A stretch of DNA of 64,000 bases from Atopobiaceae bacterium (GCA_022483015.1 JAKVOB010000001.1:952902-1016901); one strand, 5' to 3'. Numbered from the stretch's first letter, positions 21,745 through 44,391 are shown. Program-made: numbers and translations. Notes: generated by a model not told the origin, from the sequence alone.

Positions 21745-21930
21745 ACCAGCGGCGACGTTGGCCGTATTGGCGAGCATGGCGAGAACGAACATCAAATATT
21801 ATCGACTCATAACCCGGAGGTCGTTGGTTCAAATCCAGCCCCCGCGACCAAAAACATGCAGGTCATCGACGAGAGTCGGTGGCCTGTTTTTGTGTTGGTA
21901 CTACGTTGGTACTGCTTTGGTACTACAGGC
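21745..21930 (+). repeat. Extended att-region direct repeat (arm + tRNA core + hairpin + 3x TTGGTACT)
   Basis: Near-identical to 34551-34735. The first 106 nt are also near-identical to 44286-44391. Confidence 0.85.
21806..21850 (+). repeat. att core: 3' 45 nt of an initiator-like tRNA-Met(CAU), not a complete tRNA
   Basis: CTCATAACCCGGAGGTCGTTGGTTCAAATCCAGCCCCCGCGACCA contains the anticodon loop, the 3' anticodon stem CCC, the T-arm and the acceptor 3' strand + CCA. No matching 5' half (CGCGGGG...) lies upstream. Confidence 0.85.
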
Positions 21931-22218
21931 CATAGTGGTCGTACAACCCAGAATAAGTGCATAACCTGTGGCGCCGTGGTTCCCTTGGGACAGGGACGGA
22001 TGGTCCCCCTCCCGCCGGGCCCACCATCCACGGACCGAGACACACGAACACGACGGTCCTCTCGAAGTGGGCACCAAGACGACGATGGGCATAGCGAGGC
22101 TGACCCGATTCCATTGGTGGGAGCATCTCCATGTGTCGGTTCCGGTCTTGCTGGTACCATTGACAAATGATGGGCCATGGGCAGATGGAGCAGTGCCCAG
22201 AAGATGATGCGAGGACAT

Positions 22219-23661
22219 ATGACACAGTGCCCGGTGACAGACAACGATGTCAGTAAGCTCTCTGCGGCAAAGGAGAACCATTACTATGACCGCAAGAGCG
22301 CGCGTATCAAGCCGGACCATCTGGCGCAGCACATCGTCGCCCTCGCCAACGCAGCAGGCGGGAAGCTTGCTATCGGGATCGAGGACGACGGCGAGGTAAC
22401 GGGATTCAAGGCTGACGGCGCACAGACCATCGAGGGCTTCGAGCAATGTGCAATCATGGACTGTCTGCCTGCTCCGGACGTGACCTCTATCCGCATTCCC
22501 GTCATAAATTCAAGGGGTCAGGAGGATCTCGTCCTCGTACTCGACGTCGCGCCATCGAGCGATCGGGTCATCGGCCGCAAGAAGGACGGCAAGGTGTTCT
22601 TGAGGCAGGGCGACAAGAGCCCGGAGCTCAGCCATGAGCAGATTCGTGCCCTCGAGTACGACAAGAGCCAGCGTGTCTTCGAGGACGAGCTCGTCCCCGA
22701 CTCATCGATCGGAGACGTCGACCACGAGGTGCTCGACCGCTACAAGGTGATCCTCGGCACAGATGCTACGGACGAGCAGGTGCTCGAGAGCCGTAGGTTC
22801 ATGCGTGACGGCAGGCTCACCGTCGCGGGTGCCCTGCTGTTCGCCGAGGACCCCTCGTCCTTCATGCCCCAGGCGCGTGTCAGGGTGCTCCGCTTCGACG
22901 GGACGAAGATGGAGACCGGAGAGCGACTCAACATATCGAAGGACAGGACCTTCGACGGCCCCATTCCCAAGGTCGTGGACGGTGCCTATACCCTCATCTC
23001 GAGCATGCTCAGGGAGTTCCAGTTCCTTGGCCCGGACGGCAAGTTCCAGGTCGTTCCGGAGTATCCCGAGTTCGCCTGGTTCGAGGGTATCGTCAACGCG
23101 GTGACTCACAGGGACTATGCCTTCCGTGGCGACTACATCCGTGTCTCCATGTACGATGACAGGCTGGAGATACTGAGCCCCGGCAAGCTCCCCAACACGG
23201 TGACGCTCGACAACATGCGCACCACCCGCTACTCCCGTAACCCCAGGATCGCCCGGACCCTCGTCGAGTTCGGCTGGGTGCGCGAGCTCAACGAGGGGGT
23301 CCAGCGTATCTACTCTGAGATGCAGCGAATGCTGCTCAACGATCCGGTCTACACCGAACCGGAGGGGTCGAGGGTGCAGCTCACCTTGGAGAACAACATC
23401 GTCGCTCGCACGGTCAGGCGTAAGGAGGCCCTCGACGACAGGCTGTCCGAGGAAGTCATGTCGAGCCTCGGGGAGTATGAGCTTGCCGCTGTCCAGCTTG
23501 CCTTCGCGAACGGACATGTCACCACGAGGGAGTTGGCCGGCCGCATCGGACGGAGCACCCGTTCGGCCAGCAAGGCTCTCAAGGACCTGGCCTCACGTGG
23601 AATTCTGCACTGGCATGGGAGCTCGAGGAACGATCCCGCCCAACGCTACTCCCTTGACTGA
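22219..23661 (+). CDS. Schlafen/AlbA_2-domain + HATPase_c_4-like putative DNA-binding ATP-binding protein with C-terminal wHTH
   Basis: HIVALANAAGGKLAIGIEDDGEVTGF (AlbA_2-like). NAVTHRDYAFRGDYIRVSMYDDRLEILSPGKLPN...SRNPRIARTL (RecG C-terminal-like ATPase fold). Start chosen at ATG 22219. Confidence 0.75.
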   Translation: MTQCPVTDNDVSKLSAAKENHYYDRKSARIKPDHLAQHIVALANAAGGKLAIGIEDDGEVTGFKADGAQTIEGFEQCAIMDCLPAPDVTSIRIPVINSRGQEDLVLVLDVAPSSDRVIGRKKDGKVFLRQGDKSPELSHEQIRALEYDKSQRVFEDELVPDSSIGDVDHEVLDRYKVILGTDATDEQVLESRRFMRDGRLTVAGALLFAEDPSSFMPQARVRVLRFDGTKMETGERLNISKDRTFDGPIPKVVDGAYTLISSMLREFQFLGPDGKFQVVPEYPEFAWFEGIVNAVTHRDYAFRGDYIRVSMYDDRLEILSPGKLPNTVTLDNMRTTRYSRNPRIARTLVEFGWVRELNEGVQRIYSEMQRMLLNDPVYTEPEGSRVQLTLENNIVARTVRRKEALDDRLSEEVMSSLGEYELAAVQLAFANGHVTTRELAGRIGRSTRSASKALKDLASRGILHWHGSSRNDPAQRYSLD

Positions 23662-23672
23662 GCCACCTGTTC

Positions 23673-23723
23673 ATTTCGGAGTATTTCGGAGTATTTCGGA
23701 GTAGTTTCGGAGTATTTCGGAGT
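23673..23723 (+). repeat. Five tandem 10/11-bp direct repeats (ATTTCGGAGT)
   Basis: ATTTCGGAGT x3, AGTTTCGGAGT, ATTTCGGAGT, starting 12 nt after the stop at 23661. Confidence 0.9.
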
Positions 23724-23788
23724 GTCCGGGGAGAGAGCCTATGACGGTCATTTGGCAATCGGGTCCTGGGGAGAACCCATAGACAGGG

Positions 23789-23822
23789 CCTCTCGATTAT
23801 GCCCATGGGCATAATCGAGAGG
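23789..23822. repeat. Perfect 34-bp palindrome
   Basis: CCTCTCGATTATGCCCATGGGCATAATCGAGAGG, self-complementary over its full length. Confidence 0.9.
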
Positions 23823-24043
23823 AGAGCCATGGAAATGGCCCTCGAATTGGCTACAGGGACGATGGCGGCCGCTTCCGGTCAGGGGAGTGCTCGCCCATGG
23901 CCCATCCGCGTGTGAAGAATTCCCGTCCAATACCACCGTACGAAGAATCGGCGAAGAGAGCCCTGACAAAGGACGACAGGGGAGGCACGAGGTAAGGCGA
24001 CCGATACCACCGTTCGATACGGTCGGGTAACCCTCATATCGAG

Positions 24044-24087
24044 CCATAACCCGGAGGCCGTTTGTTCAAATCCAGCCCCCGCGACCA
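24044..24087 (+). repeat. att core copy 2 (diverged tRNA-Met 3' fragment)
   Basis: CCATAACCCGGAGGCCGTTTGTTCAAATCCAGCCCCCGCGACCA, followed by the hairpin GGCCATCGG-cttgtc-CGATGGCC. Confidence 0.8.
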
Positions 24088-24134
24088 AAGGCACGCAGGC
24101 CATCGGCTTGTCCGATGGCCTGGATTAGTGTCTT

Positions 24135-24166
24135 GCACCAAGGCCCTTGGTGCGCGCGCACCAAAT
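24135..24166. promoter_or_regulatory. Overlapping-palindrome motif, copy 2 of 3 (no adjacent integrase)
   Basis: GCACCAAGGCCCTTGGTGCGCGCGCACCAAAT. Confidence 0.45.
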
Positions 24167-24521
24167 AGCGTGCGAATGGGCTTTCTATGGAGGCCAATCC
24201 GCTGCAAGTTATCCCGACGCCGTCAACGGTGCCAGACAATCCCAAACCGCCTCAAATCGGTCATCGGAGGACGTCCTCGACGTCCCCGCAGGTCTTCGCC
24301 AAGAGCGCGAGAATGGTCGTTCTGTGACTCCTGGCCCTGCAAGATGCTAGGAGACCCTAGACCCTTCTCTTTGTGATGCCGCATGGGCAGGTCGTCCTGG
24401 TCTGCCCTTTGCACCAAGTCGACGGCAGGAGATCGGAGCAAGGATGACAGCGAGTCACATGGCACCAAACGGTGAGGTCGGAGTTTCTCCAAGGCGCGAG
24501 CCAGAGCTTATAGGCGTGAGA

Positions 24522-24552
24522 GAGGCGGGGGAATAAGTGATCCCCCCGCCTC
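24522..24552. terminator. Stem-loop downstream of rhaD
   Basis: GAGGCGGGGG-aataagtgatc-CCCCCGCCTC. Confidence 0.55.
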
Positions 24553-24634
24553 CCTGAAGCTCGAAGCAGCTTCTTTAGCTGTCGTGGATAATGCTATTGA
24601 CTTGGCCCCTTGACCCAGTCAAAGGGCTGATGTC

Positions 24635-25468
24635 CTAGTCAACAAACGTCTCATTGATGCTGATGCCAAAGTCGTGGCAAGTGTCTTTGAGTCCCTGATC
24701 TGGAATTGTGTTCATGAAGCCATCGGACCCACCATTCGCAGCGCGTGTGGCGATGTAGAGCTCGGCCGCCTTCTCGATGGTGTGGACGAGTCCGAACGTG
24801 GTATCGAAGTCGGGGCCCGTACCAAAGAGGCCATGCTGGGCCCAGACGGCCGCATCGTAGGTCTTCATGACCTCTGAGGTGGCCTTCGCAATGGCAGGGC
24901 CACCGGGCACCATCCAAGGCACCACACCGACTCCCTGTGGGAACACGACTACGCACTCCGTCATCATCTGCCAGAGGATGCGCGTGAATGTGCGGTTCTC
25001 AAGCGGCACGAGGTAGCTCATCTCGATGATGCCTGGTGTGTGGGCGTGGTAGATCACACGGTTCTCCCCATTGGTGCGTGCCATGGTGACCGAGTGGTTC
25101 ATGAAGTGACTCTCGAACTCACTCGTGGGGCGGGCCCCGTCGAGCAGACCCCAGACGATGCGGAAGGCATCGCCGGTCTCGCTGATCTCTATGATGCCAA
25201 TGTTGTGTTCCGGGTCCTCGAGCACGTTGTGCATGAACTTGCCGGAGCCGGTGGTCACGAAGAAGGCGTTGCGCAGGTTGTTGGCTGAGACACCCATCTG
25301 CGTCCACTCCCGTGGTGCATCGTCAAAGAAGGCGCGGGCTTGCTCGACCTCCTCGTCGCGCATGCGATAGGTGAGGTTGCCGCCGTTGCGCTCATGCCAT
25401 CCCAACTGGTCACCGTGCTGGCACATGAGGCAGAATCTCTGGATGAACTGTAGGTTGTGCATTGCCAT
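24635..25468 (-). CDS. rhaD: Rhamnulose-1-phosphate aldolase (class II aldolase)
   Basis: 277 aa. ...GWHERNGGNLTYRM...VIYHAHTPG...VWAQHGLFGTG. Last gene of the rhaB-rhaA-rhaD string. Confidence 0.85.
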   Translation of the reverse strand: MAMHNLQFIQRFCLMCQHGDQLGWHERNGGNLTYRMRDEEVEQARAFFDDAPREWTQMGVSANNLRNAFFVTTGSGKFMHNVLEDPEHNIGIIEISETGDAFRIVWGLLDGARPTSEFESHFMNHSVTMARTNGENRVIYHAHTPGIIEMSYLVPLENRTFTRILWQMMTECVVVFPQGVGVVPWMVPGGPAIAKATSEVMKTYDAAVWAQHGLFGTGPDFDTTFGLVHTIEKAAELYIATRAANGGSDGFMNTIPDQGLKDTCHDFGISINETFVD

Positions 25469-25561
25469 GATGTTCTGATCCCTTCTTTGGTCAGTCGACC
25501 GTCAGCATCTTCGGGCTGGGGTGTGTTACTTGCACCCGGCATGGGACGGCGGCTCCTGTTT

Positions 25562-26821
25562 CTAGGCTCGCTTGGAGAGGATCTCGTCCTCGTACTCCTT
25601 AACCGCACCCCAGAGGTCACTGTCAAGGGGAGTGTTGGCACGGCTGCAATACTCGTCCCATACGGCTCCGAACGGCATGCTCTTGAACTGCTCGGTGACC
25701 ATCATCTTCTCGGAGAACTGATAAGTGTCCTGCAGCTCCTTGAGCCGTGCATGGGGCTGGAGCATCTCGAAGAGGAGCGACTTCTCCATGGCCCGCATGC
25801 CCGTGGCCCATGCCCCGATGCGGTTGATGGAGGCATCGAAGAAGTCGAGTCCGACGAGGACCTTGTCCATCCCACCAGGGCAGCGCACGACCTCGCTCGC
25901 GATGTCGCGAATGGTGTCATCGAACAGGACCACATGGTCGGAGTCCCAGTGCATCGGACGCGTGACATGGAGGGGCACGTAGGGGAAGAACTGCAGGAGC
26001 GACGGGAGCTTGTCGGCGATGCTCTCGGTGGGGTTGAAGTGGCCTGCGTCTATGAGGACCACGAGGTTGCCCCCGTGCTTGGCGGCATAGGAGATGTAGA
26101 ACTCGTTGTTGCCGACGGTGAATCCCTCGAGGCCAATGCCGAAGACCTTCTGCTCGACCGCATCGATGACATGCGGCGTCTCGAAGGCATAGATCTGGTC
26201 AAGGGAGTCCTTGAGACGCGCGCGCATGCCATAGCGGTCAGCCGGGATGTCCTTGAGGCCATCAGGTATCCAGAAATTGTTCAGGACCATGTCATCGGTC
26301 TCTTCGCCAATTCTCTCCGCAATCCTGCGACAGGCGATGCAATGGCGGATCCAGAAGTCTCGGGTTCCCTCGTCGGGAGACGAGACGGAGCAGTTGTGAT
26401 TCATCCTAGGGTGCGAGAAGATCGTGGGGTTGAAGTCGATGCCGTATCCTTTGTCCTGGGCCCACTTGACCCATGGCTCGAAGTGCTTGTACTCAAGCTG
26501 GTCCCGGTCGACCCAGGGGTTCTCTGCGGTGAAGACGGCGTAGCTCGCGTGCAGATTGATGCGCTTCTTGCCGGGGATGAGGCTTGCCGCCTTCTCGAAG
26601 TCCGCCGTCAGCTCGCCGAAGTTGCGGGCTCTCCCCGGATAGTTCCCTGTCGTGAGTATCCCCCCCGAGGCGGCGTTTCCCTTCTGGTCGAAGCCGCAGA
26701 CGTCATCTCCTTGCCAGCAATGCATGGAAATCGCCTTCCCGGCGAGGTCCTCCATGATCTTCTCGGTGTCGATGCCACAAGTGGCATAGGATGCCTTCGC
26801 GAGCTCATACGCAGTCGACAT
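25562..26821 (-). CDS. rhaA: L-rhamnose isomerase
   Basis: 419 aa. ...AISMHCWQGDDVCGF...INLHASYA...WDSDHVV, characteristic of RhaA. Confidence 0.88.
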   Translation of the reverse strand: MSTAYELAKASYATCGIDTEKIMEDLAGKAISMHCWQGDDVCGFDQKGNAASGGILTTGNYPGRARNFGELTADFEKAASLIPGKKRINLHASYAVFTAENPWVDRDQLEYKHFEPWVKWAQDKGYGIDFNPTIFSHPRMNHNCSVSSPDEGTRDFWIRHCIACRRIAERIGEETDDMVLNNFWIPDGLKDIPADRYGMRARLKDSLDQIYAFETPHVIDAVEQKVFGIGLEGFTVGNNEFYISYAAKHGGNLVVLIDAGHFNPTESIADKLPSLLQFFPYVPLHVTRPMHWDSDHVVLFDDTIRDIASEVVRCPGGMDKVLVGLDFFDASINRIGAWATGMRAMEKSLLFEMLQPHARLKELQDTYQFSEKMMVTEQFKSMPFGAVWDEYCSRANTPLDSDLWGAVKEYEDEILSKRA

Positions 26822-26902
26822 GTTCTTGACTCCCGTCGTCGCGCTGCCATAGCGGCAGCTCTCCTGTTGCGTTCCATCTTGTCTTGCCTTGTTCTGGTAT
26901 GC

Positions 26903-28369
26903 CTATCTCACGAGCCTGACGTCAAACGAGGATGCGATGGTATCGCGGGCCTCCGAGACGGACGAGAACTCGTCAGCCACAATCATCTGTGCCACGAGGT
27001 TGCCGATGGACGTCGCCTCGACCGGGCCTGCATGAACGGGCATCTGACATGCCTGCGCGGTGAGTTCGTTGAGGTATGCGTCCTGGCATCCCCCGCCGAC
27101 GATGTTGATGGCGGAGAAGTCTCGTCCTGTGAGGGCGTGGAGGTCAGAGACGGCATCCGCATACGAACGGGAGAGGCTGCGATAGATGGTCTGGAGGACC
27201 TGGCCGATCGTGCATGGTATGGGCTGACCGTCATCGCGACACGCGTTTCTGACCTCCTCGATCATGGAGTCAGGTGTGAGGAATCGGTCGTCATCTACGT
27301 TTACGACGGCTTTGAAATCGTGCTCATCGCGAGCCAATCCTATGAGTTCGGTGAAGCTGAACTCATGATCGCTCTGAGCAACGAGCGACGTCTTGCCCTT
27401 GACGTAGTCCACACCGTTGATCTCGCGACGGACACACTGGATCATCCAGAGCCCCATGATGTTCTTGAGGTACCTGTACCGCCTCTCATAACCTCCCTCG
27501 TTCGTGAGGTTATGAAGTCGGCCGGCGGCGCTTATGAGGGGCTTCGCGTTCTCGATTCCGATGAGGCTCCAGGTGCCAGACGAGATGAAGACGGAGCTTT
27601 CGTCGTGGGTAGGCACGGCGAGGAACGCGGATCCCGTGTCATGAGTTGCTGGGAGCACCACCTTCGCGTCATAGCCCACCACTTCTGCGACTTCGGGAAG
27701 GAGCCCTCCCAGAGTGGTTCCCGGCATCAGGGGTGTCCGGAAGAGCTTGGAAGGGATTCCACACGCCTCAATGACCTTGGGGTCCCAGTCGCACAAACGC
27801 GCGTTCACGAGACCGGTCGTCGTCGCGTTCGTATACTCGTTGGTCTTTACACCAGTCAGACGCCAGTTGAGGTAATCGGGGATCATGAGGAAGGTCTGCG
27901 CACGCTCGACCTGCTCGGGATGCTCGCGGGCAAGGGCGATGAGCTGATAGATCGTGTTGAACGGTTGGCGCTGGACGCCCGTGTGCTCGTAGAGGGTCCC
28001 GGGGTCGATGAGCTTGTCAACGAGTTCGGGAATGTCCTCCGTGCGCCTGTCGCGATAGGCGACGGCATCACCAAGGACGTGGTCATTCTCGTCGAGTAGG
28101 ACGAAGTCGACGCCCCAGGTATCGATTCCGATGCTCTCAGGGACACGGCCGAACTCGCTGCTGCAGGCGGCAAGGCCCCTCTCGACTTGGTCGAAGAGCT
28201 CCTCTACGTCCCAACAGTCATGATTGTCGATGCGCCTCTGTGAGTTGGCGAAGCGATAGACCTCCTGGAACCCAATCCTGCCGTCATCGACCCATCCAAT
28301 CAGGACACGTCCACTTGATGCTCCTATGTCTACGGCGGCATGGCACCTCATGTTGGAGGGATCGTCCAT
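26903..28369 (-). CDS. rhaB: Rhamnulokinase (FGGY carbohydrate kinase)
   Basis: 488 aa. AAVDIGASSGRV...GIDTWGVDFVLLD...FSAINIVGGGCQ. Synteny with rhaA/rhaD. Confidence 0.85.
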   Translation of the reverse strand: MDDPSNMRCHAAVDIGASSGRVLIGWVDDGRIGFQEVYRFANSQRRIDNHDCWDVEELFDQVERGLAACSSEFGRVPESIGIDTWGVDFVLLDENDHVLGDAVAYRDRRTEDIPELVDKLIDPGTLYEHTGVQRQPFNTIYQLIALAREHPEQVERAQTFLMIPDYLNWRLTGVKTNEYTNATTTGLVNARLCDWDPKVIEACGIPSKLFRTPLMPGTTLGGLLPEVAEVVGYDAKVVLPATHDTGSAFLAVPTHDESSVFISSGTWSLIGIENAKPLISAAGRLHNLTNEGGYERRYRYLKNIMGLWMIQCVRREINGVDYVKGKTSLVAQSDHEFSFTELIGLARDEHDFKAVVNVDDDRFLTPDSMIEEVRNACRDDGQPIPCTIGQVLQTIYRSLSRSYADAVSDLHALTGRDFSAINIVGGGCQDAYLNELTAQACQMPVHAGPVEATSIGNLVAQMIVADEFSSVSEARDTIASSFDVRLVR

Positions 28370-28697
28370 GATGTTTCCCTTCGCTTGAAAACCACGGCCA
28401 TTTGATTTTGTAGGCCAATCCTACCAGGATGTAAAAATGGATTTCGCAGGAAGAGTCTATCACAGAAACCAATTTCTTATTGAAGATGGGCATGACGAAA
28501 GAGGTAGAGGCCACCTTTTCGTCAAATAGCAGACTGGAGAACCCAAGACACGAATCTGCAAATGGTCGAGGAACAACTGCGAACGGCTATCACCAGGGAC
28601 TGATATCGAAGTTGAAGTCCATACGGCTGAAACACCTCTCATGTACCTTCCAGCGCGGTGCCGCCAGGGCTCGTCGTTGCACGCGTCATATCACCTA

Positions 28698-29561
28698 TCA
28701 GTCAGTGTCGGCCGTCTTGTCGAGGGCAAAAGACTTGTTGAAGATACGGAGGTATTCCCCTACGTCAAGCGAGTCGTGGAAGAGGAGAAGCACCAGGAGC
28801 TCGATAACGAAGTCAATCGAGCTGTACGAGAACGAGAAGTCGCCGGCAAGGAGACGGTCCCGCGAGACGGCAGCCAAGACATGATCCGCCCTGCGCGCGA
28901 GCGTGCTCGCCCCGTTGCCCGTGATGATAGCCGTAGGTATGGCGGAATCGGCTGCCTCATCCATGATGATGCCCAGACGCTTGGACTCGCCGGAGCTCGA
29001 GATGAAGAGGATGCAGTCAGAACCCGTGAGCAACTGTGTGAGCACAGTGGCGGCATCAGAGGAGACTGGGGATATGGCGCGAATGCCCACATGAGTCAGC
29101 TTCACGGCAGCCGTCTGGGCGACCGAGAGCGAGGTCCCCACACCAACGACCAACACGGTTCCGGCCCCTTGGAGGAGACGGGTAATGGCGGTTACCTCAT
29201 CGGGGTCGAGAGAAGCCACCGTATCCTCGAGCTCGTGTACCTTCTGGTCGAGGTAGAAGCGCATCGAGGATGAGACGTCATCGAGTGAGATGACGGCAGC
29301 TCCCTCGCTTGGCTCCTGGCGCGAGGCCTCCTCTCTGGAGAGGGCCAGGCGGAGTTGAGCAAAGCTCTCGTATCCTAACGTGTGGACGAAACGCGAAACC
29401 GTGGTGTTGGAGGTATGGCATTTCTGGGCTATCTCACTTGCCATGAGCGAAGAGACCTGCTCGTCATCAGTGAGGATGAAGTTCGCAATGCGCTGCTCGG
29501 AATCCGAGAAACGCTTATATGACGAGAGAATCTGGCTCGTTACGGTTGATTCCTGGCCCAT
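28698..29561 (-). CDS. RpiR/MurR-family transcriptional regulator (HTH_6 + SIS)
   Basis: SEQRIANFILTD...IAQKCHTSNTTVSRFVHTLGYESFAQLR, then a SIS domain VLVVGVGTS. ATG 29561 is preceded by GGGAGG. Confidence 0.85.
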   Translation of the reverse strand: MGQESTVTSQILSSYKRFSDSEQRIANFILTDDEQVSSLMASEIAQKCHTSNTTVSRFVHTLGYESFAQLRLALSREEASRQEPSEGAAVISLDDVSSSMRFYLDQKVHELEDTVASLDPDEVTAITRLLQGAGTVLVVGVGTSLSVAQTAAVKLTHVGIRAISPVSSDAATVLTQLLTGSDCILFISSSGESKRLGIIMDEAADSAIPTAIITGNGASTLARRADHVLAAVSRDRLLAGDFSFSYSSIDFVIELLVLLLFHDSLDVGEYLRIFNKSFALDKTADTD

Positions 29562-29619
29562 GGATACCTCCCTTGATAGACGACATGACCAGACCAAACC
29601 TGTACGAGAGTACTCTTTT

Positions 29620-29646
29620 GTCGCTTGTCGCTTGTCGCTTGTCGCT
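29620..29646 (+). repeat. Heptanucleotide microsatellite (GTCGCTT x3.9)
   Basis: GTCGCTTGTCGCTTGTCGCTTGTCGCT in the divergent rpiR / PTS intergenic region. Confidence 0.9.
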
Positions 29647-30297
29647 GATTGGTAGAGTTGGGATAGGCACTGGGCACCGTACCAATCTTAAGCACCAGGG
29701 ACAAGTTCTCATGGAAACGTCCCGATAGTCCAGTGATGTATAGCCGAGCAGTTCCATGGCCTTGTAATCGATGTCGCAGGGGTCGTGCAATACCGCCCGC
29801 GGTCTTCAGACAACCGTTCACGGAGATACCCGGTAGTCGGAAAATGAGTAACCATCCATCCAGAATGACCGTTTTAGCAGGACTAAGTTTATCCCTGGGT
29901 CGAAAAACGCTACCGCATGACAAAGATAGAACAAAAATCACTTTCATACTTTGCTATTATCGAATGCGGCAGATGGGCTTATGGATACGTGACGAGCATG
30001 AATCTGCCAGGCAAGTGTTATTTGCAGTGCAACCATCATAAGGGCCAGAGGGAGATTTGGGTTATCTGGCAATGAGTGACGTATCGGTTTTGGTTAGCAG
30101 TATGGAGCGTTGTACCGGTCAACGTACCTTCTGATTGCTATATGGGACTGAGCGGGGGGAGGCTCGAGGAAAGACGTAAGCGTATATGCCATGTCTTCTG
30201 CTCGATGTCATCAAGGAACCGATTGATCTTCGGTGACAAGTAGATTGCTTGGTCCACTAATCACAAAGAAGAAGTGATATGAGAGGTCGTGCGAAAT

Positions 30298-31752: not shown

Positions 31753-31763
31753 AGTGGTTCCAG

Positions 31764-35971: not shown

Positions 35972-36038
35972 GTGGGTTAAAGGACAAAACGTGTTGCTGT
36001 TCCTTCACGCCCTTGCAGGTAGGACCCAAAGAAACCAT

Positions 36039-36068: not shown

Positions 36069-36116
36069 AGGGACCGCGCGACATGGACCTTGCTACGGAC
36101 CAATATAGGGACGGCC

Positions 36117-36959
36117 TTATTGTGAGGCTTCTCGCAAGCGCTTCTGGTGTGAGCTGACCCTGCAACTGTCGCTGCAGAAGATACGTCGGTGGCCATCGTT
36201 CGGTACCAGGAGAGACCTTCCACAGTTTGGACACGTCAGGAAGCGGGTGTTGTCATCATGGTCACGGATGGCTGACCACAGTGCACAGGGGAGGTCATCA
36301 AAGACCAGGGTCATGTCACGGTGACCGCACTGAGTACCCGGAGCACAGTCGATGCTGGGTGAGTAGAGTGCATGTTCGAAGGCGTTGACGATTCTGTTTG
36401 CAAGCTCGATCTGAAGGTCACTAGATGCTGAGGCTGACGGGTCGTTGCACCTGACGAAAAGATAGAGCCACTTGTCACTTGGGCGACTTGTCTCTCTTTT
36501 CATGTGCGGTAGCACTGTCGAATTGCGACGGTTGGTTACGAAGAGTTTTACGGAGTCATCTACTCCCATGGTCCATGTGGTTCCGCTGCCGTCGACGCGG
36601 GCTATTCGACTGAGCAGGGGATGACGAGAGCGCGATGTCTGCTGCTCATCGGCTGAAATAGTGTTCAAAGCCATTGGGATGACGAATCCGTTGGTATTCG
36701 GACCGAGTCCGATTGGTAGGAAACGCTCACTGGCAAATGAGAATCCGGCAGCTAGTAGAAGTGGCTGAGGCCCTGTCATCGAATGTCCGAATGTGCAAAG
36801 ACGCATCGTCAAGGACGGAATACGCCGGAGCAGACACCAGTCCCATAGCGGATCGGACCGAAGGGAATATAACCTGCCATCAAGGTCAAACTCACCCGAA
36901 GCCGCTGCGGATACCAGGCCAGATGCCGAAACGATATGAGGAAGATCCTTGAGTCTCAC
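36117..36959 (-). CDS. Hypothetical protein with C-terminal zinc-ribbon (CPNCG...CSDSC)
   Basis: 280-aa ORF with a GTG start. C-terminal FLTCPNCGRSLLVPNDGHRRIFCSDSCRVSSHQKR. The N-terminal ~230 aa have no recognisable motif. Confidence 0.6.
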   Translation of the reverse strand: MRLKDLPHIVSASGLVSAAASGEFDLDGRLYSLRSDPLWDWCLLRRIPSLTMRLCTFGHSMTGPQPLLLAAGFSFASERFLPIGLGPNTNGFVIPMALNTISADEQQTSRSRHPLLSRIARVDGSGTTWTMGVDDSVKLFVTNRRNSTVLPHMKRETSRPSDKWLYLFVRCNDPSASASSDLQIELANRIVNAFEHALYSPSIDCAPGTQCGHRDMTLVFDDLPCALWSAIRDHDDNTRFLTCPNCGRSLLVPNDGHRRIFCSDSCRVSSHQKRLREASQ

Positions 36960-37242
36960 TTGAGTTGTGCAAAGGAGAGGGGATCCTTTTGGGATTGGTC
37001 GGCTCCTTGATGTCGAGGAACAGCTCTTGCGCGCATGTGGCGCGTGCGACCTGGCCTATTGGTGCAAGACTCTTTGACCAATCGTTCAAATCCGCGTCTT
37101 TGACAAGGTCAGGGGACTCGTTCGCGAGCATCTCACGCAACTTGCTTGGGTCCAATGCCGAAGCGTCAGTGCCGGAATCACCTGGGAACATGACGTCCAG
37201 GTTCGAAATGGCGGGAATTAAAGTGCCGATATCACGTGCCAT
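36892..37242 (-). CDS. Hypothetical protein (116 aa) overlapping the next gene by 68 nt in another frame
   Basis: MARDIGTLIPAISNLDVMFPGDSG.... ATG 37242 lies 7 nt from the IS3 left end. It may be the 5' part of one frameshifted gene with 36117-36959. Confidence 0.4.
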   Translation of the reverse strand: MARDIGTLIPAISNLDVMFPGDSGTDASALDPSKLREMLANESPDLVKDADLNDWSKSLAPIGQVARATCAQELFLDIKEPTNPKRIPSPLHNSSETQGSSSYRFGIWPGIRSGFG

Positions 37243-37299
37243 CAGGAAATGATATGACCCACGAACCTTGGACACCAAGACGACTTGGAAGGAGTCGCG

Positions 37300-37779
37300 A
37301 TGTCCACCAACGAGAGGGTCACCCATTACCACCATCACCATATGCCCGAGGAGATCATGCAAGCCTTCACCTACGAGGAGGAGGGCTACACGATCCGGGA
37401 GACAGCGTCGCGCTGTGGGGTGTCCGAGTCCACGGTCAAGGACTGGAACAGGCAGTACCTCATCCGTGGCAAGGCGATGCTCAAGTCCAGGAAGAGGACC
37501 TACTCGCGCTACCCGGAGGCAACCAAGTCCTCCGCCGTCAGGGCCTACCTCTCGGGCGAGGACGCCAACACCGTCGCAGAGAGGTTCGGTATCCTGAGGG
37601 TGCAGAGCATCTACGTGTGGTCGCACGACGACGGGTACAGGGGCTGTGTCGCGATGGAGGACGAGCGCAAGGCACCCAGGACCAACCGCAAGGTCAGTGC
37701 CCGGGACGAGCAGGAGGGCATGTCCCCCGAGGAGGAGCTCGAGTACCTCCGAATGGAGAACGCCATACTAAAAAACTAG
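37300..37779 (+). CDS. IS3 transposase OrfA (HTH)
   Basis: ATG 37300 after GGAAGGAG. ...ETASRCGVSESTVKDWNRQY.... Ends LRMENAILKN* at the A6 slippery run (37770-37775). Confidence 0.85.
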   Translation: MSTNERVTHYHHHHMPEEIMQAFTYEEEGYTIRETASRCGVSESTVKDWNRQYLIRGKAMLKSRKRTYSRYPEATKSSAVRAYLSGEDANTVAERFGILRVQSIYVWSHDDGYRGCVAMEDERKAPRTNRKVSARDEQEGMSPEEELEYLRMENAILKN

Positions 37780-37834
37780 AGGCCTTGAGGTCGGAGCGGC
37801 GCCGACCGCGGAGAAGGTAGCGGTTGTCCGGGCC

Positions 37835-38665
37835 TTGAGGCGTGACTTCCCGTTTGGGGCGCTCCTTGCCTACGTAGGGCTTCCCAGGTCGACCTTCTAC
37901 TATCGTGCCTCGCACTCGGCGGTCGACCGCCATGCCCCTGTCCGACCGCTGGTCCGCTCGGTGTTCGAGGGCTCACGCGGGGCCTATGGCTATCGGAGGG
38001 TGGCCCTGGCGCTGGAGAGGGACTACGGCGTGCGGTTCGATTGCAAGACCGTGGCGAAGATCATGCGCGCCGAGGGGCTCCGGGCGAGGGGCAGGCGGAG
38101 GAGCAGGTACAACTCGTACAGGGGCACCATGGGTAGGGTGGCCCCGAACCTCCTCGAGAGGCACTTCACGGCGGAGGTGCCCATGTGCAGGCTGGTGAGC
38201 GACATCACCCAGTTCAACGTCGGTGACAGGCGGGTCTACCTCTCGCTTCTCATCGACCTCTACAACGGGGAGGTCGTCTCCTGGAGGATCGGTCCCGGCC
38301 CCGACGTCGAGTCCGCGCTCGGCATGCTCGCCGATGCCGCCGGTAGGCTCCAGGAAAGCGGGGCCGTGATACACACCGACCAGGGGTTCCAGTACCAGAT
38401 GCCCAGGTGGCGCGACAGGCTGGCGTCGCTAGGCTGCACGCAGTCGATGTCGAGGAAGGCGACCTGCCTCGACAACGCGCCGGCCGAGAGCTTCTTCGGC
38501 AGGCTCAAGACGGAGTTCTCCGACGGCTCCGACTACACACAGCCCAAAAGGGTCGCCAGGGACCTCGATGCCTGGATAGTCTGGTACAACACCGATAGGA
38601 TCAGGGGGTCACTCGGAGGTTTCGCCCCTGTAGAATACAGGTTGGCCGACCAGCGGCTGGCCTAG
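37835..38665 (+). CDS. IS3 transposase OrfB (DDE/rve integrase core)
   Basis: ...LVSDITQFNV...IHTDQGFQYQ...DNAPAESFFGRLKTE.... The frame is open from 37772. It lies in the +1, not the -1, frame relative to OrfA. Confidence 0.85.
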   Translation: MRRDFPFGALLAYVGLPRSTFYYRASHSAVDRHAPVRPLVRSVFEGSRGAYGYRRVALALERDYGVRFDCKTVAKIMRAEGLRARGRRRSRYNSYRGTMGRVAPNLLERHFTAEVPMCRLVSDITQFNVGDRRVYLSLLIDLYNGEVVSWRIGPGPDVESALGMLADAAGRLQESGAVIHTDQGFQYQMPRWRDRLASLGCTQSMSRKATCLDNAPAESFFGRLKTEFSDGSDYTQPKRVARDLDAWIVWYNTDRIRGSLGGFAPVEYRLADQRLA

Positions 38666-38899
38666 GAACATGTACAAGATCGACGGGTCACATCAAGCGA
38701 GACCCCCCCCAGAGCTCTCCATTCTCGTGACTAAATCGGTATGAGAAGGTGTGCGGTAGTTAAGGAAATGATTCTAGCCCGCGCCGACGGGAGAGAATGT
38801 ATGTCGAGCGTTCCACGGTAGTGCCTGGCTCGGGCACATCTCTCACTCAAGGTAAAAGTTAAAGCTCTTATTGCCGTAATGGTCAGGTCGCAAGAGGCT

Positions 38900-38947
38900 C
38901 ATCCGTACAGCGGTTAAGGGGACGTGCCCCTTAACCTCGTACGGATG
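38900..38947. promoter_or_regulatory. Imperfect 48-nt hairpin upstream of the second mobC; candidate oriT
   Basis: CATCCGTAC-agcg-GTTAAGGGG-acgtg-CCCCTTAAC-ctc-GTACGGATG, 140 nt upstream of the mobC-like gene. Confidence 0.35.
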
Positions 38948-39087
38948 ACGGGGCTCTGCCCCCACCCTGGCCCCGACCCTACGGGTCGGCGAAGGACATG
39001 GACGACGGGCGCCGCAGACTCGCCGTCATCAAGACCGAGGGGAGAGGGAAGATGAAAGATGTCGATTAGGAGGCCCGTCACCGGGCT

Positions 39088-39543
39088 GTGTCCCTGAAGG
39101 GGCAGAAGGGTGCACTCCGTCGCAAGCGGAGGAGGAAGTCCTCCGATGGCGGAATCCGAAAGCCGGAGATCTCGTTCAGGGTCTCTGAGAAGGAGCGCGA
39201 TCTTCTCAGGTCCGCCGCGAGGGAAGCGGGGGTCTCGATGACCGACTACGTTCTAGCCCGGTGCCTGTACGCAGATGACATCCCGCCGATGCCACCGAGG
39301 GATGAGCTGCGCGAGACGCGGCTTGAGCTCACACGTCAGGGCGTCAACCTCAACCAGCTCGCCAAAGCCGCCCACCGCCTCGTGGCTGTCGCCTACGGTG
39401 ACGAGGCGCCGGCCGCGGAGGTCGGCGAGCTGGTGGACGAGCTCCTCGCCATGAAGGAGGATCTTCTGCCTGACGCGAACGAGGCCGACAGGACGTATCG
39501 CAGGCTCCTCGCCTTTGCAAACATTCACGCGAGGAGGCGGTAG
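39088..39543 (+). CDS. mobC: MobC-family relaxosome protein (RHH)
   Basis: GTG start. ISFRVSEKERDLLRSAAREAGVSMTDYVL and GVNLNQLAKAAH. Confidence 0.75.
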   Translation: MSLKGQKGALRRKRRRKSSDGGIRKPEISFRVSEKERDLLRSAAREAGVSMTDYVLARCLYADDIPPMPPRDELRETRLELTRQGVNLNQLAKAAHRLVAVAYGDEAPAAEVGELVDELLAMKEDLLPDANEADRTYRRLLAFANIHARRR

Positions 39544-39545
39544 CC

Positions 39546-40602
39546 ATGTCGATGATTAAGACGCTCTCGGAGCCGAAGGATGACCGAGCGGGTCTCGGCA
39601 TCGAGACGTATCTCCATCACGGGTCCAAGGGCGACAGGCGCGAAAGGGCGCTCGCGCTCGCGGCCTCGGCCGACGTGGAGAAGGAGCTCGGGGAAGAGAC
39701 GCATGGATGGCACGGCATCATGGACGAGACCCAGCAGGAAATAGGGAATGACAAGTGCCGTCGCATCTATCACTTCATGATCTCCCCTGACCCCGAGGAC
39801 CACGTCACCGTCGAGGAGGTGCTTGACATGGCACGTGAGTGGGCCGAGCGAGCCCATCCGGACGGGCAGTGGGTCATCGTCATCCACGACGACAAGCAGA
39901 ACCCCGCCCCCCCATGCCCACGTCGTCCTCAACTCAATCATTCCGGCGACTGGGATGAAGATCCATAGGGACAGGAAGGACCTCGACTTCGAGGCTGCCG
40001 CGCTCCAAGAGGTGAGCGCGGCCCACGGCCTCGGGGTGATGGAGGACCTCGCCGACAGGAGAGGAAAGCTGGCCGAGGAGAGGAAGCACTAGGATTCAGG
40101 TCAGTGGGTCAGAACCGACAAGGCCGAGCAGGCCATGAGACGCGAGGGCCGACTGAGCTGGAAGGCCTACATACGCGACGCCGTCGACAGGACGAAGGAA
40201 TCGGAGACCACCTGGGCGGGCTTCGTGAGGACGCTGCCGACGGCGTTTGGCGTGACGGTCACCGAGGGCCGCAGCGGGGTGGTCTACCATCATCTCCTCG
40301 CCAGGAGCGACCATGAGATGCGCATCAAGGGGACGACCCTCGATTTCGGGTACGGCAAGGTCGGCGTGGAGAGGACCGTGGAGGTCGACTTCGACTTGCT
40401 ACTTGCACCGACGGGGAGACCATCATGTCCCGGGTTCACGCCCCACGGGGACGCGGAGATAGCGCTGAGGAGGGTCATCCGATGGGCCACGAGGAGGACT
40501 CCCGAGGAGGCATCCGGTCACACGACCATCGAGACATGGCTGGAGAAGCAGGAGAGGAGGACCCACGGCTCGGTCGCTCACGGGCGATCCTCGACGCGAT
40601 AG
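39546..40602 (+). pseudogene. Relaxase pseudogene (frameshift in a C7 tract + in-frame TAG)
   Basis: IHDDKQNPAP then, in another frame, HAHVVLNSI: the histidine triad is split at CCCCCCC 39907-39913. TAG at 40090-40092 interrupts ...AEERKH*DSGQWVRTDKAEQAMRREGRLSWKAYIRD. Confidence 0.8.
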
Positions 40603-40623
40603 GGACGGTCAAGCGGGGAGGGC

Positions 40624-41351
40624 GTGACCTCTTCCATCGACCTTAGGAATCAGGCGGATGAGCTCACCGTCCGCGTCTCGGAACTCGAGTCCGACATTGC
40701 CGACGACGAGCGATGGGTCGACAGAGCCATCGCGGTCAAGGAGAAATGGGAGACGGCCCAGGCCGCACGCAAGGAGGCGAGCAGTCTCGAGGGTGGTGCC
40801 CTGCACCCGGCGGAGAGGAAGGGGCGCAACGCCCTCATCGCGAGCGCAGAGGCCAATGAGGCGTGCGCGAGGGGCAGGTCGAATCCGCGAGACCATGGCT
40901 CGAGCGCGATGGGAGGAAGCCATCGGACGCACACGCCGCGGCGGTCGAGTTGGAGCCGGCCTTCTACGACCGTCTCGGTGAGACGAGGAAGGACCTCGAT
41001 TCCCTCTCAGCGAGGGCGGAGGCCATGCGGAAGGCCAGGGGCGTCGCGGAGGTAATCCTTGCGGACGAGAAGCCACCTGAGCACAAGGGGACGAGAGCCA
41101 TGGGGGCACCTGTGTCCGCGAGGACCATCGAGGGGGCGGAACGCAAGGCGAAGCCGAGGGATGCGAGGGCGGCTGGCTACCAGACATTCCTGATGGAGCA
41201 GGCTCGTCTTGACAGGGAGCTCCAAAATGGGCAAGTGGTGAGCTGCGGTGTCATGCAGACCACGAGTCAGAGCGTCACACGGTCGGGCCGGGAGACGGGT
41301 GCTTCATCAACGTATCATCCATGCAGCGACTTGATTGGTTCACTCGGGTAG
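40624..41351 (+). other. Possible degraded coiled-coil gene downstream of the relaxase (coding frame ambiguous)
   Basis: Three overlapping ORFs in different frames (40624-41055, 40658-40981, 40863-41351). Each is plausible in part and none is continuous. Confidence 0.25.
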
Positions 41352-41356
41352 GGGGG

Positions 41357-42505
41357 CTAAAAAGGTACATTAAGACAGTCCAGTATCATAAACCAGAATA
41401 TGCCGAAGGTAACAACAGCTGCCGATACAATCACGACGTTATTCTTTAATGATAAAGATAGAAAGTACCTGACGAAATGTTCCATTCGTAGTACATAACG
41501 AGATGTTCCTTCTGCGTTTGATACTCCTTCGGGTTCGGTTGCAATGTCACATTGACTAGTCATCCGATTTAGGTAATTGATAATCGGAGGTAGGTTAAAC
41601 AGCAGCCAAAACAGTTGGAAGACCAATACAAATATGAACACGAAAAGAAGAAACGGGGCAGTAGCTTCTAAGACTTTAACGAGCAGTTGGTCTCTTATGT
41701 AAAGGTATAAACAGCTAAATAATGCCCCGAGCATAGCCGAAATAATGAGGATGCCTGGATGCCAGGGTTTTAGATGTGATAACTTTTCTTTACAACCATG
41801 TGCATCACGGATTGAAACAGCAGGAGTAAATGTCCAGTAATGCGCAAATGCTGTGCCGAAATACAAACAGCAGTAGTAGCACTTTAGTGGGAGCTTAGGA
41901 GAGTCAGTCCCGAGACCCTGAGCCGCGATAATTATTTGGCAAATCCATGCTCTTAGAAGAAAAAAGCTTGTAACAAGAACAATAAAGGACATAGAGGAAG
42001 TCGAACTCTTTCCTGGAAGATCTTGTTTTGTCTTTAGGTTTCTAAGCCGGTTGTAAACACTATTGTAATAAGATCCATATGATATCCCTATGAGTAGAAG
42101 CATGACGCTAATGAATACAAAGCCGCCTATCCAGGAGGTCCAGTCCGATTCATTCCCTGATATGCAGAATGCCAATCTGGGGAGAAGACTGTTATCGTTT
42201 ACTTTATAAAGAGTTCCATATGCTCTGTAGAGAAACTCAAGGATGGACACGAAAAGTACTGCAAGAAATGAAATGCATGTAAGAATGAGTCCGCAATAGC
42301 TAGGATTAGTAATTATTATAAGGAAGGCTTCCAAGCCGCCGACGTGCGTACGGTCCCCTTTTCTGTTTCCAGTCCAAATGTAATGCCAGTTATTTTTTAA
42401 ATCATCATGTGTCAGCGGGGAATGGTTACTTAAGATTTCGTCGACCCTGGAAGCTACGTTTCCTCCACTCTTTCCATCAGACACGTCGATTTGTGACTGT
42501 TGCAT
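41357..42505 (-). CDS. Orphan polytopic membrane protein (382 aa), strongly AT-rich
   Basis: About 9-10 hydrophobic helices and a soluble N-terminal ~50 aa. Composition is very different from all neighbours. No recognisable motif. Confidence 0.7.
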   Translation of the reverse strand: MQQSQIDVSDGKSGGNVASRVDEILSNHSPLTHDDLKNNWHYIWTGNRKGDRTHVGGLEAFLIIITNPSYCGLILTCISFLAVLFVSILEFLYRAYGTLYKVNDNSLLPRLAFCISGNESDWTSWIGGFVFISVMLLLIGISYGSYYNSVYNRLRNLKTKQDLPGKSSTSSMSFIVLVTSFFLLRAWICQIIIAAQGLGTDSPKLPLKCYYCCLYFGTAFAHYWTFTPAVSIRDAHGCKEKLSHLKPWHPGILIISAMLGALFSCLYLYIRDQLLVKVLEATAPFLLFVFIFVLVFQLFWLLFNLPPIINYLNRMTSQCDIATEPEGVSNAEGTSRYVLRMEHFVRYFLSLSLKNNVVIVSAAVVTFGIFWFMILDCLNVPF

Positions 42506-42996
42506 ATGTTCTCCTAAACATCCAAAAGCATAATAACGCCGTTCAATAATAGGTTCATTCTGTGACAGTTGTGGCCAGAACGCCTTTTGAAGCGCAAGTA
42601 GTATGTCAAGGTTATGCTCATGGCTCCGAGGCCCATGAGTCGGTTGACATCCAGAACTGTTTTGTCGTCACACATGAGACCTGAAAAGGGTGGCGTGAGT
42701 CCAATCGAACCGCGAGTGGCAAGGAGACCGGTAGCTGAATCGTTGCCATTGTTGCGAGCTCGTCGCCACGGGGAGCGGCGATGTCACTCGTGTTCGGGCA
42801 TGAGGCCGGGGTTCGCGGCGTTGCGGTCGGCGAGACCCTCCATGTCACCATGAAACCCTGGGTCTAGAGAGACCAGCCGATGATTCGTCATGCCCTATGA
42901 ACCTACTGGCAGATGAGTCAACATAATCGATTCTAAGGTCATGCCAGGTGTAGTTTGGACATATGGTGCGGGGACATTGGCTTCCGGAACGCTTTC

Positions 42997-44184
42997 TTAT
43001 CTTCCGGTGAGCACTTCGTCCATGTGGTCGGCCACTGTCCTCTTGCCGCTCTTGAGGTGGTCGGCGTAGACGTCGAGTGTCATCGAGTCTCTCGCGTGAC
43101 CCAGTAGGGCGCTTGTCGTCTTCACGTCCTCGCCGTTCCCGATCGCCAGGTTGGCGAACGTGTGCCTGAGGTCATGGAACGAGGGGACCCTGCCCTGCGT
43201 GCCTATGAATCCCATCGAGCTCGCGAGTGCGTTCCACTGCTTCCAGACCGTGAAGACGCTCGCATAATCCCCACGGATGTCTCCCAGCACGTAGAGCTGT
43301 GCCATGCGCTCGCGCGAGTCGTCGAGGTCGGCCTCCAGGCGGAGCGTCCTCATCTCGCGGTAGCGGCGGCGGAGTGGCTCCACGAGCGCCTCGGCCATGG
43401 GGATGTCACGTCGGCCGCTCGCGGTCTTGGGCTCCTTCACGTAGGTCTTGCCGCCGTCGCGGGCAATGGCGCGCCGCACCCACACGGTCCTCGCGTCGAA
43501 GTCGACGTCGCCCCACCTGAGCGCGCAGATCTCGCCCTGCCTCATGCCGGTCATGAGGGCGATGGTGACGGCGAGGTTGAAGGGCGTGTCGGCTGCCGCC
43601 TCGAGGTAGGCGAGGAGCGTCCTCCTCTGGTCGTCCGGGAGGGCGTTCGGCATCGTGCGGGCGACCTTCGGCGCCCTCACGCGCGCGACGGGGTTGCGGT
43701 CGAGCAGACCGTCCTCGATGGCCTCCTCGCACACGGTCTTGAGGAGGACGTGCGCCTTCCTCACGGTCTTGGGGGAGAGGTGGCGCTCCTCACCCAGGAG
43801 CTCCGCCTCCCAGGCCTGCACGTCCTCGGTCACGAGGTCGCGCATGGCCACGCCGCAGAGCCCCTCGTCAACGTAGTTGATGATGGCACGGTAGCCGTAG
43901 ACGGTGGTCCTCTCCACCGACATCGACGTCTCGAGCGCGTCGACGTAGCGGCGCATGTAGTCCACGACCGATATGTCCGGCCTCATGCCCGTGCGGGGCT
44001 TGCGGCCTCCGCTCCGCCTCTCGAGCATCGCGCGGACCTCGGCGAGCTCCCGTTTGGCATCGCGCATGTTGCCCGCCTCGAGCGTGCGGCTCGTCTGGTG
44101 CCAGCGTCCCTCGCCGTCCTTGTACTTGAAGATTCCGCGGTAGGGAGGGACGTCTCCCCGGACGAAGCAGTTCGTATATAACAT
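42997..44184 (-). CDS. int: Tyrosine recombinase / integrase of element D
   Basis: Close paralogue of 20378-21643, with more than 100 consecutive identical residues in the centre. HDLRHTFANLAI...LLGHARDSMTLDVYA. ATG 44184 chosen by analogy (GTG 44193 is possible). Confidence 0.92.
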   Translation of the reverse strand: MLYTNCFVRGDVPPYRGIFKYKDGEGRWHQTSRTLEAGNMRDAKRELAEVRAMLERRSGGRKPRTGMRPDISVVDYMRRYVDALETSMSVERTTVYGYRAIINYVDEGLCGVAMRDLVTEDVQAWEAELLGEERHLSPKTVRKAHVLLKTVCEEAIEDGLLDRNPVARVRAPKVARTMPNALPDDQRRTLLAYLEAAADTPFNLAVTIALMTGMRQGEICALRWGDVDFDARTVWVRRAIARDGGKTYVKEPKTASGRRDIPMAEALVEPLRRRYREMRTLRLEADLDDSRERMAQLYVLGDIRGDYASVFTVWKQWNALASSMGFIGTQGRVPSFHDLRHTFANLAIGNGEDVKTTSALLGHARDSMTLDVYADHLKSGKRTVADHMDEVLTGR

Positions 44185-44200
44185 CCATTCCACCTCTTAT

Positions 44201-44233
44201 GCACCAAGGGGCCTTGGTGCGCGCGCACCAAAT
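44201..44233. promoter_or_regulatory. Overlapping-palindrome motif, copy 3 of 3
   Basis: GCACCAAGGGGCCTTGGTGCGCGCGCACCAAAT, 17 nt upstream of int. Confidence 0.5.
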
Positions 44234-44285
44234 CCCGGTTACCGTGCAGGCCTGTCTTGGCTAAGTTGTACCACGCTGTCCTGTT

Positions 44286-44391
44286 ACCAGCGGCGACGTT
44301 GGCCGCATTGGCGAGCATAGCGAGAATGAACATCAAATATTGTCGACTCATAACCCGGAGGTCGTTGGTTCAAATCCAGCCCCCGCGACCA
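44286..44391 (+). repeat. att arm + core, copy 4
   Basis: Near-identical to 21745-21850 and 34551-34656. Confidence 0.85.
44347..44391 (+). repeat. att core copy 4 (tRNA-Met 3' fragment) at the junction with core chromosome
   Basis: Identical 45-mer, followed by the hairpin CAGGCCATCGAC-gaga-GTCGGTGGCCTG. Confidence 0.85.

Follow-up and report, generated by a model that had tools for sequence, protein, structure and literature searches.

A 64,000-nucleotide stretch of the genome of an Atopobiaceae bacterium (GCA_022483015.1, JAKVOB010000001.1:952902-1016901; in its full length, the window) contains four directly repeated copies of the 3' part of a tRNA-Met gene, which we call cores. They divide the region into one integrative and conjugative element (abbreviated ICE), ICE A, and three shorter segments, in the order ICE A, core 1, B, core 2, C, core 3, D, core 4 and chromosome (Table 1). 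The stack amounts to about 53 kb: a conjugative element, two remnants that have decayed, and a small island bearing an integrase. Gene content was taken from Pfam, PADLOC and locus gene tables. The JGI metagenome contig Ga0527070_002 (2.27 Mb) is identical to the window (window position 1 is contig position 952906), and homologues carry the name Atopobiaceae. Two loci identical to the window, L145 and L132, supplied the ICE A genes that lie to its left.

Table 1. Positions of the cores, attachment-site arms, genes and segments of the array, counted from the first base of the window
Feature	Position	Strand	Remarks
ICE A, in-window part	1-21805		Element start about 9 kb left of the window, end at int1
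Relaxase (MobA/VirD2 nuclease domain) of ICE A	9027-10262	-	411 aa as called in L132
Type IIG restriction-modification enzyme, ICE A cargo	10895-14092	+	PADLOC REase_MTase_IIG, E 1e-183; GC 0.47-0.51
Right (P) arm remnant inside ICE A	14208-14312	+	Aligns to 21691-21807; no core behind
Gabija pair, ICE A cargo	14791-17779	+	GajA 14791-16368, GajB 16355-17779; PADLOC E 3e-115, 1e-95
int1, tyrosine integrase of ICE A	20378-21643	-	PF00589, E 6e-27; HDLRH and LGH...Y motifs in translation
Right (P) arm of ICE A	21659-21805	+	GCACCAAGG/CCTTGGTGC/GCACCAA motif 21659-21692; 61-nt arm 21745-21805
Core 1	21806-21850	+	Exact 45-mer, 3' part of tRNA-fMet
Terminator hairpins, one per core	21851-21895, 24088-24131, 34657-34700, 44392-44436	+	
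Segment B, 2.2-kb remnant	21851-24042		Single gene; degenerate right arm
Hairpin and left (P') arm of B	21851-21930	+	Three TTGGTAC repeats; about 98% identical to D left arm
Schlafen AlbA_2 + HATPase_c_4 gene of B	22177-23661		Pfam/PADLOC
Core 2	24043-24087	+	Decayed 45-mer, 4 mismatches
Segment C, 10.5-kb ICE remnant resembling a cis-mobilizable element (CIME)	24088-34611		GC 0.50-0.60, against 0.65-0.69 in chromosome flank
Left end of C	24088-24532	+	Hairpin; left arm of ICE type with GCACCAAGG motif; start of xis (~90 nt)
61-nt right (P) arm at end of C	34551-34611	+	Sole ICE right-end part kept; no integrase
Core 3	34612-34656	+	Exact 45-mer
Segment D, 9.7-kb decayed integrative mobilizable island	34657-44346		Bordered by cores 3 and 4
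Left arm of D	34657-34735	+	Three TTGGTAC repeats
AbiD/Abi_2 in D	34912-35847		
IS3-family insertion (orfA/orfB) in D	~37248-38695		
NikA-like gene in D	39088-39543		Intact
Relaxase of D	39696-40380		Frameshifted
int2, tyrosine integrase of D	42997-44193	-	PF00589, E 9e-23; HDLRH and LGH...Y motifs in translation
Right (P) arm of D	44200-44346	+	Motifs as in ICE A right arm; 61-nt arm 44286-44346
Core 4	44347-44391	+	Exact 45-mer, outermost attR
Terminator hairpin, then unique chromosomal flank	44392-44436	+	GC back to 0.63-0.69

Four fragments of an initiator tRNA gene

A first-pass annotation of the window had reported a 45-nucleotide sequence, CTCATAACCCGGAGGTCGTTGGTTCAAATCCAGCCCCCGCGACCA, in three exact copies, at 21806, 34612 and 44347. 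All three were found on the + strand, against a chance expectation of 0. The diverged copy that it placed at 24044 is also present, but starts one base earlier, at 24043; of the four mismatches in this core 2, the anticodon loop has two and the variable region one, and the remaining one disrupts the T stem. The sequence directly 3' of each of the four cores folds stably into a hairpin, with energies from -22.7 to -30.3 kcal/mol (z from -4.3 to -6.8); at copies 1 and 3 a clear T run follows it. The folding energies thus bear out the statement that a hairpin follows every copy, and several searches agree that the copies lack a tRNA 5' half, as had been stated, and that no complete tRNA overlaps them: ARAGORN found no tRNA in the window, Rfam gave no match at gathering threshold in the window nor at E ≤ 1 in 20-46 kb, and the 5' half of the intact gene, TGCGGGGTGGAGCAGTCTGGTAGCTCGCCGGG, has no match in the window when up to three mismatches are allowed.

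The identity of the 45-mer became clear from a scan of a genome sample holding one genome per species, which gave at least 120 stretches from at least 107 assemblies, almost all of them Coriobacteriia and a few with other labels. Among the exact occurrences listed (at least 122) are 92 in intact genes, 21 bare fragments and 9 ended by a contig edge. In at least 92 Coriobacteriia loci the 45-mer is the 3'-terminal part (nucleotides 33-77) of an intact tRNA-Met(CAU) gene 77 nt long, spanning the first base of the anticodon loop to CCA. Bacterial initiator tRNAs are marked by three G:C pairs in the anticodon stem, an A11:U24 pair and a non-Watson-Crick 1:72 position. Read from its sequence, the intact gene has a CAU anticodon, G29-31 paired with C39-41, A11:U24, and U1 opposite G72, which is non-Watson-Crick. 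Because it bears these marks, the earlier description of the fragment as initiator-like is correct, and what had been called a close resemblance to the 3' half of initiator tRNA is identity with the 3' 45 nt of such a gene.

The arrangement seen in the window recurs elsewhere. Four genomes have an intact tRNA-Met and a fragment on one contig. In every one of them the two stand on the same strand with the fragment 3' of the complete gene, and islands of 4.3-13.6 kb lie between them (9.8 kb in Slackia exigua). A homologue of the ICE A integrase int1 (25-40% identity) adjoins the fragment upstream and reads away from it, as in the window, in 11 of the 21 foreign fragments listed. Several foreign fragments are followed by a hairpin and then by short direct repeats resembling the TTGGTAC repeats of the window, which may be read as the left arms of another element; tandems therefore seem common. 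With 3' fragments of initiator tRNA in 20 of the at least 107 assemblies listed, we regard the initiator tRNA-Met gene as a frequent insertion hotspot in Coriobacteriia. We consider it highly likely that the four cores are attR-type junctions, that is, right-hand attachment (att) sites, of four integrative elements stacked on the 3' end of one initiator tRNA-Met gene.

Where the intact gene stands can be predicted from homologous left ends. The xis-like gene with which ICE A opens is 8.6 kb to the left of the window; L145 extends no more than 26 nt past it. As proxies for the missing end we used contigs from other metagenomes (L148-L154) whose xis is 99% identical to that of ICE A. L151 has the order intact tRNA-Met, hairpin, motif TCTTGCACCAAGGCCCTTGGTGCGCGCGCACCAAAT and xis; L149, L152 and L154 start with GG or GGG ahead of the anticodon loop, matching the anticodon stem; and in L153 the same ICE left end stands behind a bare tRNA fragment, a layout that appears to indicate a tandem. 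Because of these left ends and the direction rule kept by all four same-contig pairs, we predict an intact tRNA-Met about 9.0 kb left of the window, about 360 nt beyond xis. Scans of metagenomes for tRNA plus D-type arm or tRNA plus hairpin stem, and of viral contigs with the xis leader, gave no match. Across L148-L154, which encode the same xis protein, the tRNA 3' halves have three different T-stem sequences. This variety would fit if every element retains a tRNA 3' half of its own, in which case the host initiator tRNA would be chimeric after integration.

Arms, integrases and segments

The 61-nt upstream arm described for three of the copies is common to cores 1, 3 and 4 at 95-98% identity. 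At core 2 the right arm is degenerate. In ICE A this arm contains three TGGC-type repeats; these, together with the conserved TTGGT(A/G)C/GCACCAA repeats, are candidate arm-type binding sites. The two integrases lie where they had been placed, adjoining copies 1 and 4 on the left, and both read away from the copy. Calling them near-identical overstates the case, because they are 85% identical in protein (BLASTP) and 84% in DNA over 300 nt. One public annotation has a 170-aa gene at 21658-22170, which would span the att site from the right arm through core 1 into the left arm of B; this open reading frame is almost certainly spurious.

From the left, ICE A encodes an xis-like HTH_17 protein, an IstB-like ATPase, the coupling protein T4CP, PrgI, VirB4, a CwlT-like hydrolase, TrbL_2, a TQ/SpaA/thioester (TED) adhesin, ArdC, a relaxase, low-GC cargo, UPF0102 and int1. 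Genes from xis to VirB4 were read in L145/L132, left of the window, and those from the hydrolase to the relaxase by Pfam within it. With relaxase, T4CP, VirB4, other mating-pore genes and integrase all present, ICE A is, by gene content, a full conjugative element, for which self-transfer is predicted. GC in its cargo region lies 15-20 points under that of the transfer module. The cargo includes a Gabija pair with OLD-TOPRIM/AAA (GajA) and UvrD (GajB) domains. Within the transfer module, the surface adhesin (3346-6942) combines a thioester domain, SpaA folds and four T-Q ester-bond domains; its domains are visible as 345-366-nt internal DNA repeats at 5659-6768.

Segment C holds a record of descent from such an element. 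Core 2 with the 444 nt behind it (24045-24532, about 490 nt) is 93% identical to the ICE left ends L148, L151 and L153, and the truncated xis included there matches the first part of the ICE A xis (L145 1-100) at 94% identity. Homology to the ICE left end breaks off within xis, and rhamnose genes come next: the cargo consists of class II aldolase, RhaA, FGGY kinase, RpiR and EIIBC of a phosphotransferase system (PTS). Searching B and C (21851-34611) by tblastn with int1 revealed no integrase remnant, nor did the same search at 14.2 kb, and Pfam found only cargo genes in the two segments, none for an integrase or for transfer. Flanked by att sites of the family, free of integrase and transfer genes, and derived from an ICE by deletion, C has the makeup of a CIME, and its sequence identifies it as an ICE remnant.

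For B the record is thinner. It was said that B and C had lost their integrases; none remains in either, but B has a history less clear than mere integrase loss. Its att flanks are core 1 with a D-type left arm on one side and the decayed core 2 with a degenerate right arm on the other, so that derivation by deletion is argued from the common left arm, a weaker case than that for C. B is probably a remnant as well. B-like genes occur in small tRNA-fMet islets of other Coriobacteriia (L026, L058). The Schlafen AlbA_2 protein of B matches the N-terminal part of a pAgo-fusion model.

Segment D has an integrase and att sites of its own: int2, both arms, and cores 3 and 4. As for mobilization, homology to a relaxase (39546-40380) is split over two reading frames near 39910, and the gene is probably a pseudogene. 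We classify D as a decayed integrative mobilizable element (IME), because the relaxase is split and an IS3 element is inserted. Split calls of this relaxase recur in other assemblies of the species.

Right of position 44391 the unique chromosomal flank encodes a DeoR regulator (44548-45303), TAL/FSA, a PFL activase and a PFL-like enzyme. Anti-phage genes are abundant in the cargo carried by the whole stack, namely the type IIG restriction-modification enzyme, Gabija, the Schlafen AlbA_2 protein and AbiD.

Probable stepwise accretion and its alternatives

We suggest that the attP of each element would consist of a 45-nt tRNA copy, which runs from the anticodon loop to CCA, followed by the tRNA terminator. 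A tyrosine integrase would recombine attP with the chromosomal tRNA gene, most likely within the anticodon loop. Strand exchange is placed there because identity with both fMet and Val, the latter described below, begins exactly at the loop, and because the arm remnant at 14208-14312 loses homology 2 nt into the core position. This remnant, 82% identical over 45 nt, lies between the restriction-modification gene and Gabija with no integrase adjoining; it may be what is left of an earlier junction, or may stem from recombination with a site other than a tRNA gene. Because the element supplies the 3' half and the terminator, the tRNA gene would be kept whole at the left junction, and the right junction would hold a promoterless 3' fragment.

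An alternative view gives the fragments a role beyond that of passive scars: they would be expressed and act, for example, as small RNAs resembling tRNA halves, with the hairpins as terminators. The strong terminator hairpin kept at every copy and the perfection of three copies would suit such a role. Perfect copies and hairpins are, however, explained by the need to rebuild a working, terminated tRNA on integration, and core 2 has decayed. No promoter was found upstream of the fragments, though no search was aimed at one. We regard this possibility as exceedingly improbable.

Returning to stacked elements, repeated integration into one of the resulting att copies would stack ICE A, then B, C and D. 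Internal deletion would have turned C, and probably B, into non-autonomous cis-mobilizable remnants, and D would have decayed through the frameshift in its relaxase and the insertion sequence. The three steps, in which an element integrates, decays to a CIME and is joined by another through accretion, are those of a model described previously (PMC5704250). Successive insertion at one tRNA att site had been proposed for this region, and the direction rule found in four of four genomes, together with the origin of C from an ICE, argues for it. As core 2 is decayed and cores 1, 3 and 4 are perfect, the seam between B and C would be older than the others, or out of use.

Could the repeat blocks have arisen instead within one large island, by segmental duplication or gene conversion, so that the segments are not separate elements at all? 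The 124-186-nt blocks are similar enough for this: copies 1 and 3 also have a downstream arm in common, and the resulting stretches 21745-21930 and 34551-34735 (about 186 nt) are about 98% identical. Furthermore, the hairpins are mosaic. Copies 1 and 4 have one loop, GACGAGAGTC, and copies 2 and 3 another, GGCTTGTCC, and the bases flanking the hairpins group differently from the loops (1 and 3, against 2 and 4), which suggests exchange or conversion among att copies; some conversion has therefore happened. Counter to an origin of the blocks in this way, every block coincides precisely with a switch from one kind of element to another and has arms specific to the element on either side, C starts with an ICE left end that includes xis, and the layout of fragment plus integrase recurs independently in many genomes and at tRNA-Val. 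We thus think duplication or conversion very improbable as the source of the segments.

A different sequence of events is that part of the stack, for instance B-C-D, or the whole of it was assembled in another host and arrived as one composite in a single integration step. Arguing for this case, the order B-C-D-DeoR is common to all assemblies of the species, the decay of core 2 beside perfect cores 1, 3 and 4 makes the B|C seam older than the others, and transfer of a CIME-ICE tandem as one unit is documented (PMC5704250). On the other hand, both D and ICE A have an intact integrase of their own and complete arms, which makes independent integration equally simple. Composite arrival would be one form of accretion and is compatible with that model; as an account of this stack we hold it to be rather unlikely.

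Several observations weigh against accretion at this tRNA gene. With L145 ending where it does, neither the intact tRNA nor ICE A's left junction is seen in the source genome. An empty site was looked for in relatives, and none was found in the genome sample, in which no locus has the DeoR/TAL/PFL flank; short contigs with DeoR break inside core 4 and are hence uninformative on this point. No strain polymorphism was found, the order B-C-D-DeoR being present in every species assembly that reaches the region. Pattern scans of metagenomes and viral contigs revealed no circular or excised form; the viral collection has no match to arm plus core, and the search with int1 gave only integrases 30% identical. 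B has no recognisable right arm of the family beyond a few bases. Finally, because the hairpins are a mosaic of two loop types, the order of insertion is blurred and cannot be reconstructed from them.

A paralogous array at tRNA-Val and comparison with known systems

We considered whether ICE A might itself end at tRNA-Val, as a hybrid or rearranged element. This was suggested by L137, in which an ICE starts right after an intact tRNA-Val(GAC) and which was reached through a VirB4 homologue 99% identical to that of ICE A. We rejected this ending because L137 is only 96% identical, and only in the transfer module, with homology ending before ArdC. A search of the window for the tRNA-Val fragment found none. 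Given its own integrases and its own 45-nt tRNA-Val fragment, the element is a second, paralogous ICE at about 1.95-1.98+ Mb of the same genome (L138/L141: Ga0527070_002, 1,945,636-1,977,499; L137/L142: GCA_028704445.1 contig 15).

The integrases at the tRNA-Val array are 57% (P0125) and 56% (P0133) identical to int1. Beside P0125 stand the GCACCAAGG...GCACCAA motif, three TGGC-type repeats and a 45-nt fragment that matches tRNA-Val exactly, once more from the anticodon loop to CCA. The intact tRNA-Val lies at the far end of the paralogous ICE, as seen in a metagenome-assembled genome of the same species, and a second integrase element, that of P0133, is stacked outside it. The same arm motifs next to a tRNA-Val fragment therefore point to one integrase lineage using the same geometry at two tRNA genes, and the fMet/Val pair of ICEs with conserved arms is convenient for studying integrase target specificity. 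Two copies of an element about 94% identical to the IS3 element of D are present in the tRNA-Val array (L138 4257-5725 and 8265-9729).

These observations lead us to a tentative proposal, which we hold possible rather than probable: the stack may be a working nested system whose integrases are active at present, and its integrase lineage may have been retargeted from tRNA-fMet to tRNA-Val, with only the 45-nt core exchanged and the arms kept. If so, any two perfect cores could serve as substrates for the Int/Xis of ICE A or for int2, and the rhamnose/PTS remnant and the small defence islets could undergo excision and transfer in cis within the units A, A+B+C or A+B+C+D. The fMet/Val pair would then be a natural means to map what sets tRNA specificity in these recombinases.

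More generally, one tRNA gene in the genome of a gut Atopobiaceae bacterium gathers about 53 kb of foreign DNA, including sugar-use genes and several anti-phage systems. Mobile elements of Coriobacteriia have hardly been described, and a literature search on ICEs and tRNA genes in this class found none; the stack can serve as a worked example in a poorly studied group.

The closest parallel is the ICESt1/ICESt3-CIME system of Streptococcus thermophilus (Pavlovic 2004, Bellanger 2011, as reviewed in PMC5704250). According to that account, integration is likewise site-specific at the 3' end of a conserved gene, the remnant keeps both att sites and loses its integrase and transfer genes, and the newcomer is added at an att site. 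In our case, by comparison, the target is a tRNA gene, the host is an actinobacterium of the Coriobacteriia, four units are stacked instead of two, and cis-mobilization is a prediction only. In the tRNA-Lys composite of Streptococcus agalactiae (a decayed ICE with IME_Sag2603_tRNAlys; PMC5704250), too, an ICE stands in tandem with a mobilizable island that has an integrase; both are at the 3' end of one tRNA gene, and the att site between them is chimeric. Its integrases are <30% identical and its att sites very different (PMC5704250), whereas the integrases in the window are 85% identical and have a common right arm.

Among actinobacteria, the Bifidobacterium prophages Bb423phi2, 689b-1, Bbr-1 and Bl-1 (PMC6109161) also use the 3' end of tRNA-Met as attB. 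Their core is about 39 bp, and they are single prophages, in contrast to the conjugative elements and arrays described here. Attachment sites that run from the anticodon loop to CCA form a known class, as set out in a preprint (bioRxiv 10.1101/2020.11.02.365908, with Williams 2002 summarised there). As in that class, the identity block at fMet and at Val extends from the 5' edge of the loop to CCA; judged against the same account, the block in our elements is about 45 nt longer, continuing through the hairpin, and the crossover is placed from the block edges only.

Accretion of the kind known from ICESt1/ICESt3-CIME and from tRNA-Lys of S. agalactiae would account for the stack, which we take to be a clear but ordinary case of a well-known process. 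It involves no new mechanism and leaves the understanding of how such elements work unchanged. What it adds to these systems is the host group, the depth of four units, the initiator tRNA hotspot in Coriobacteriia, and the paralogous fMet/Val pair in one genome.

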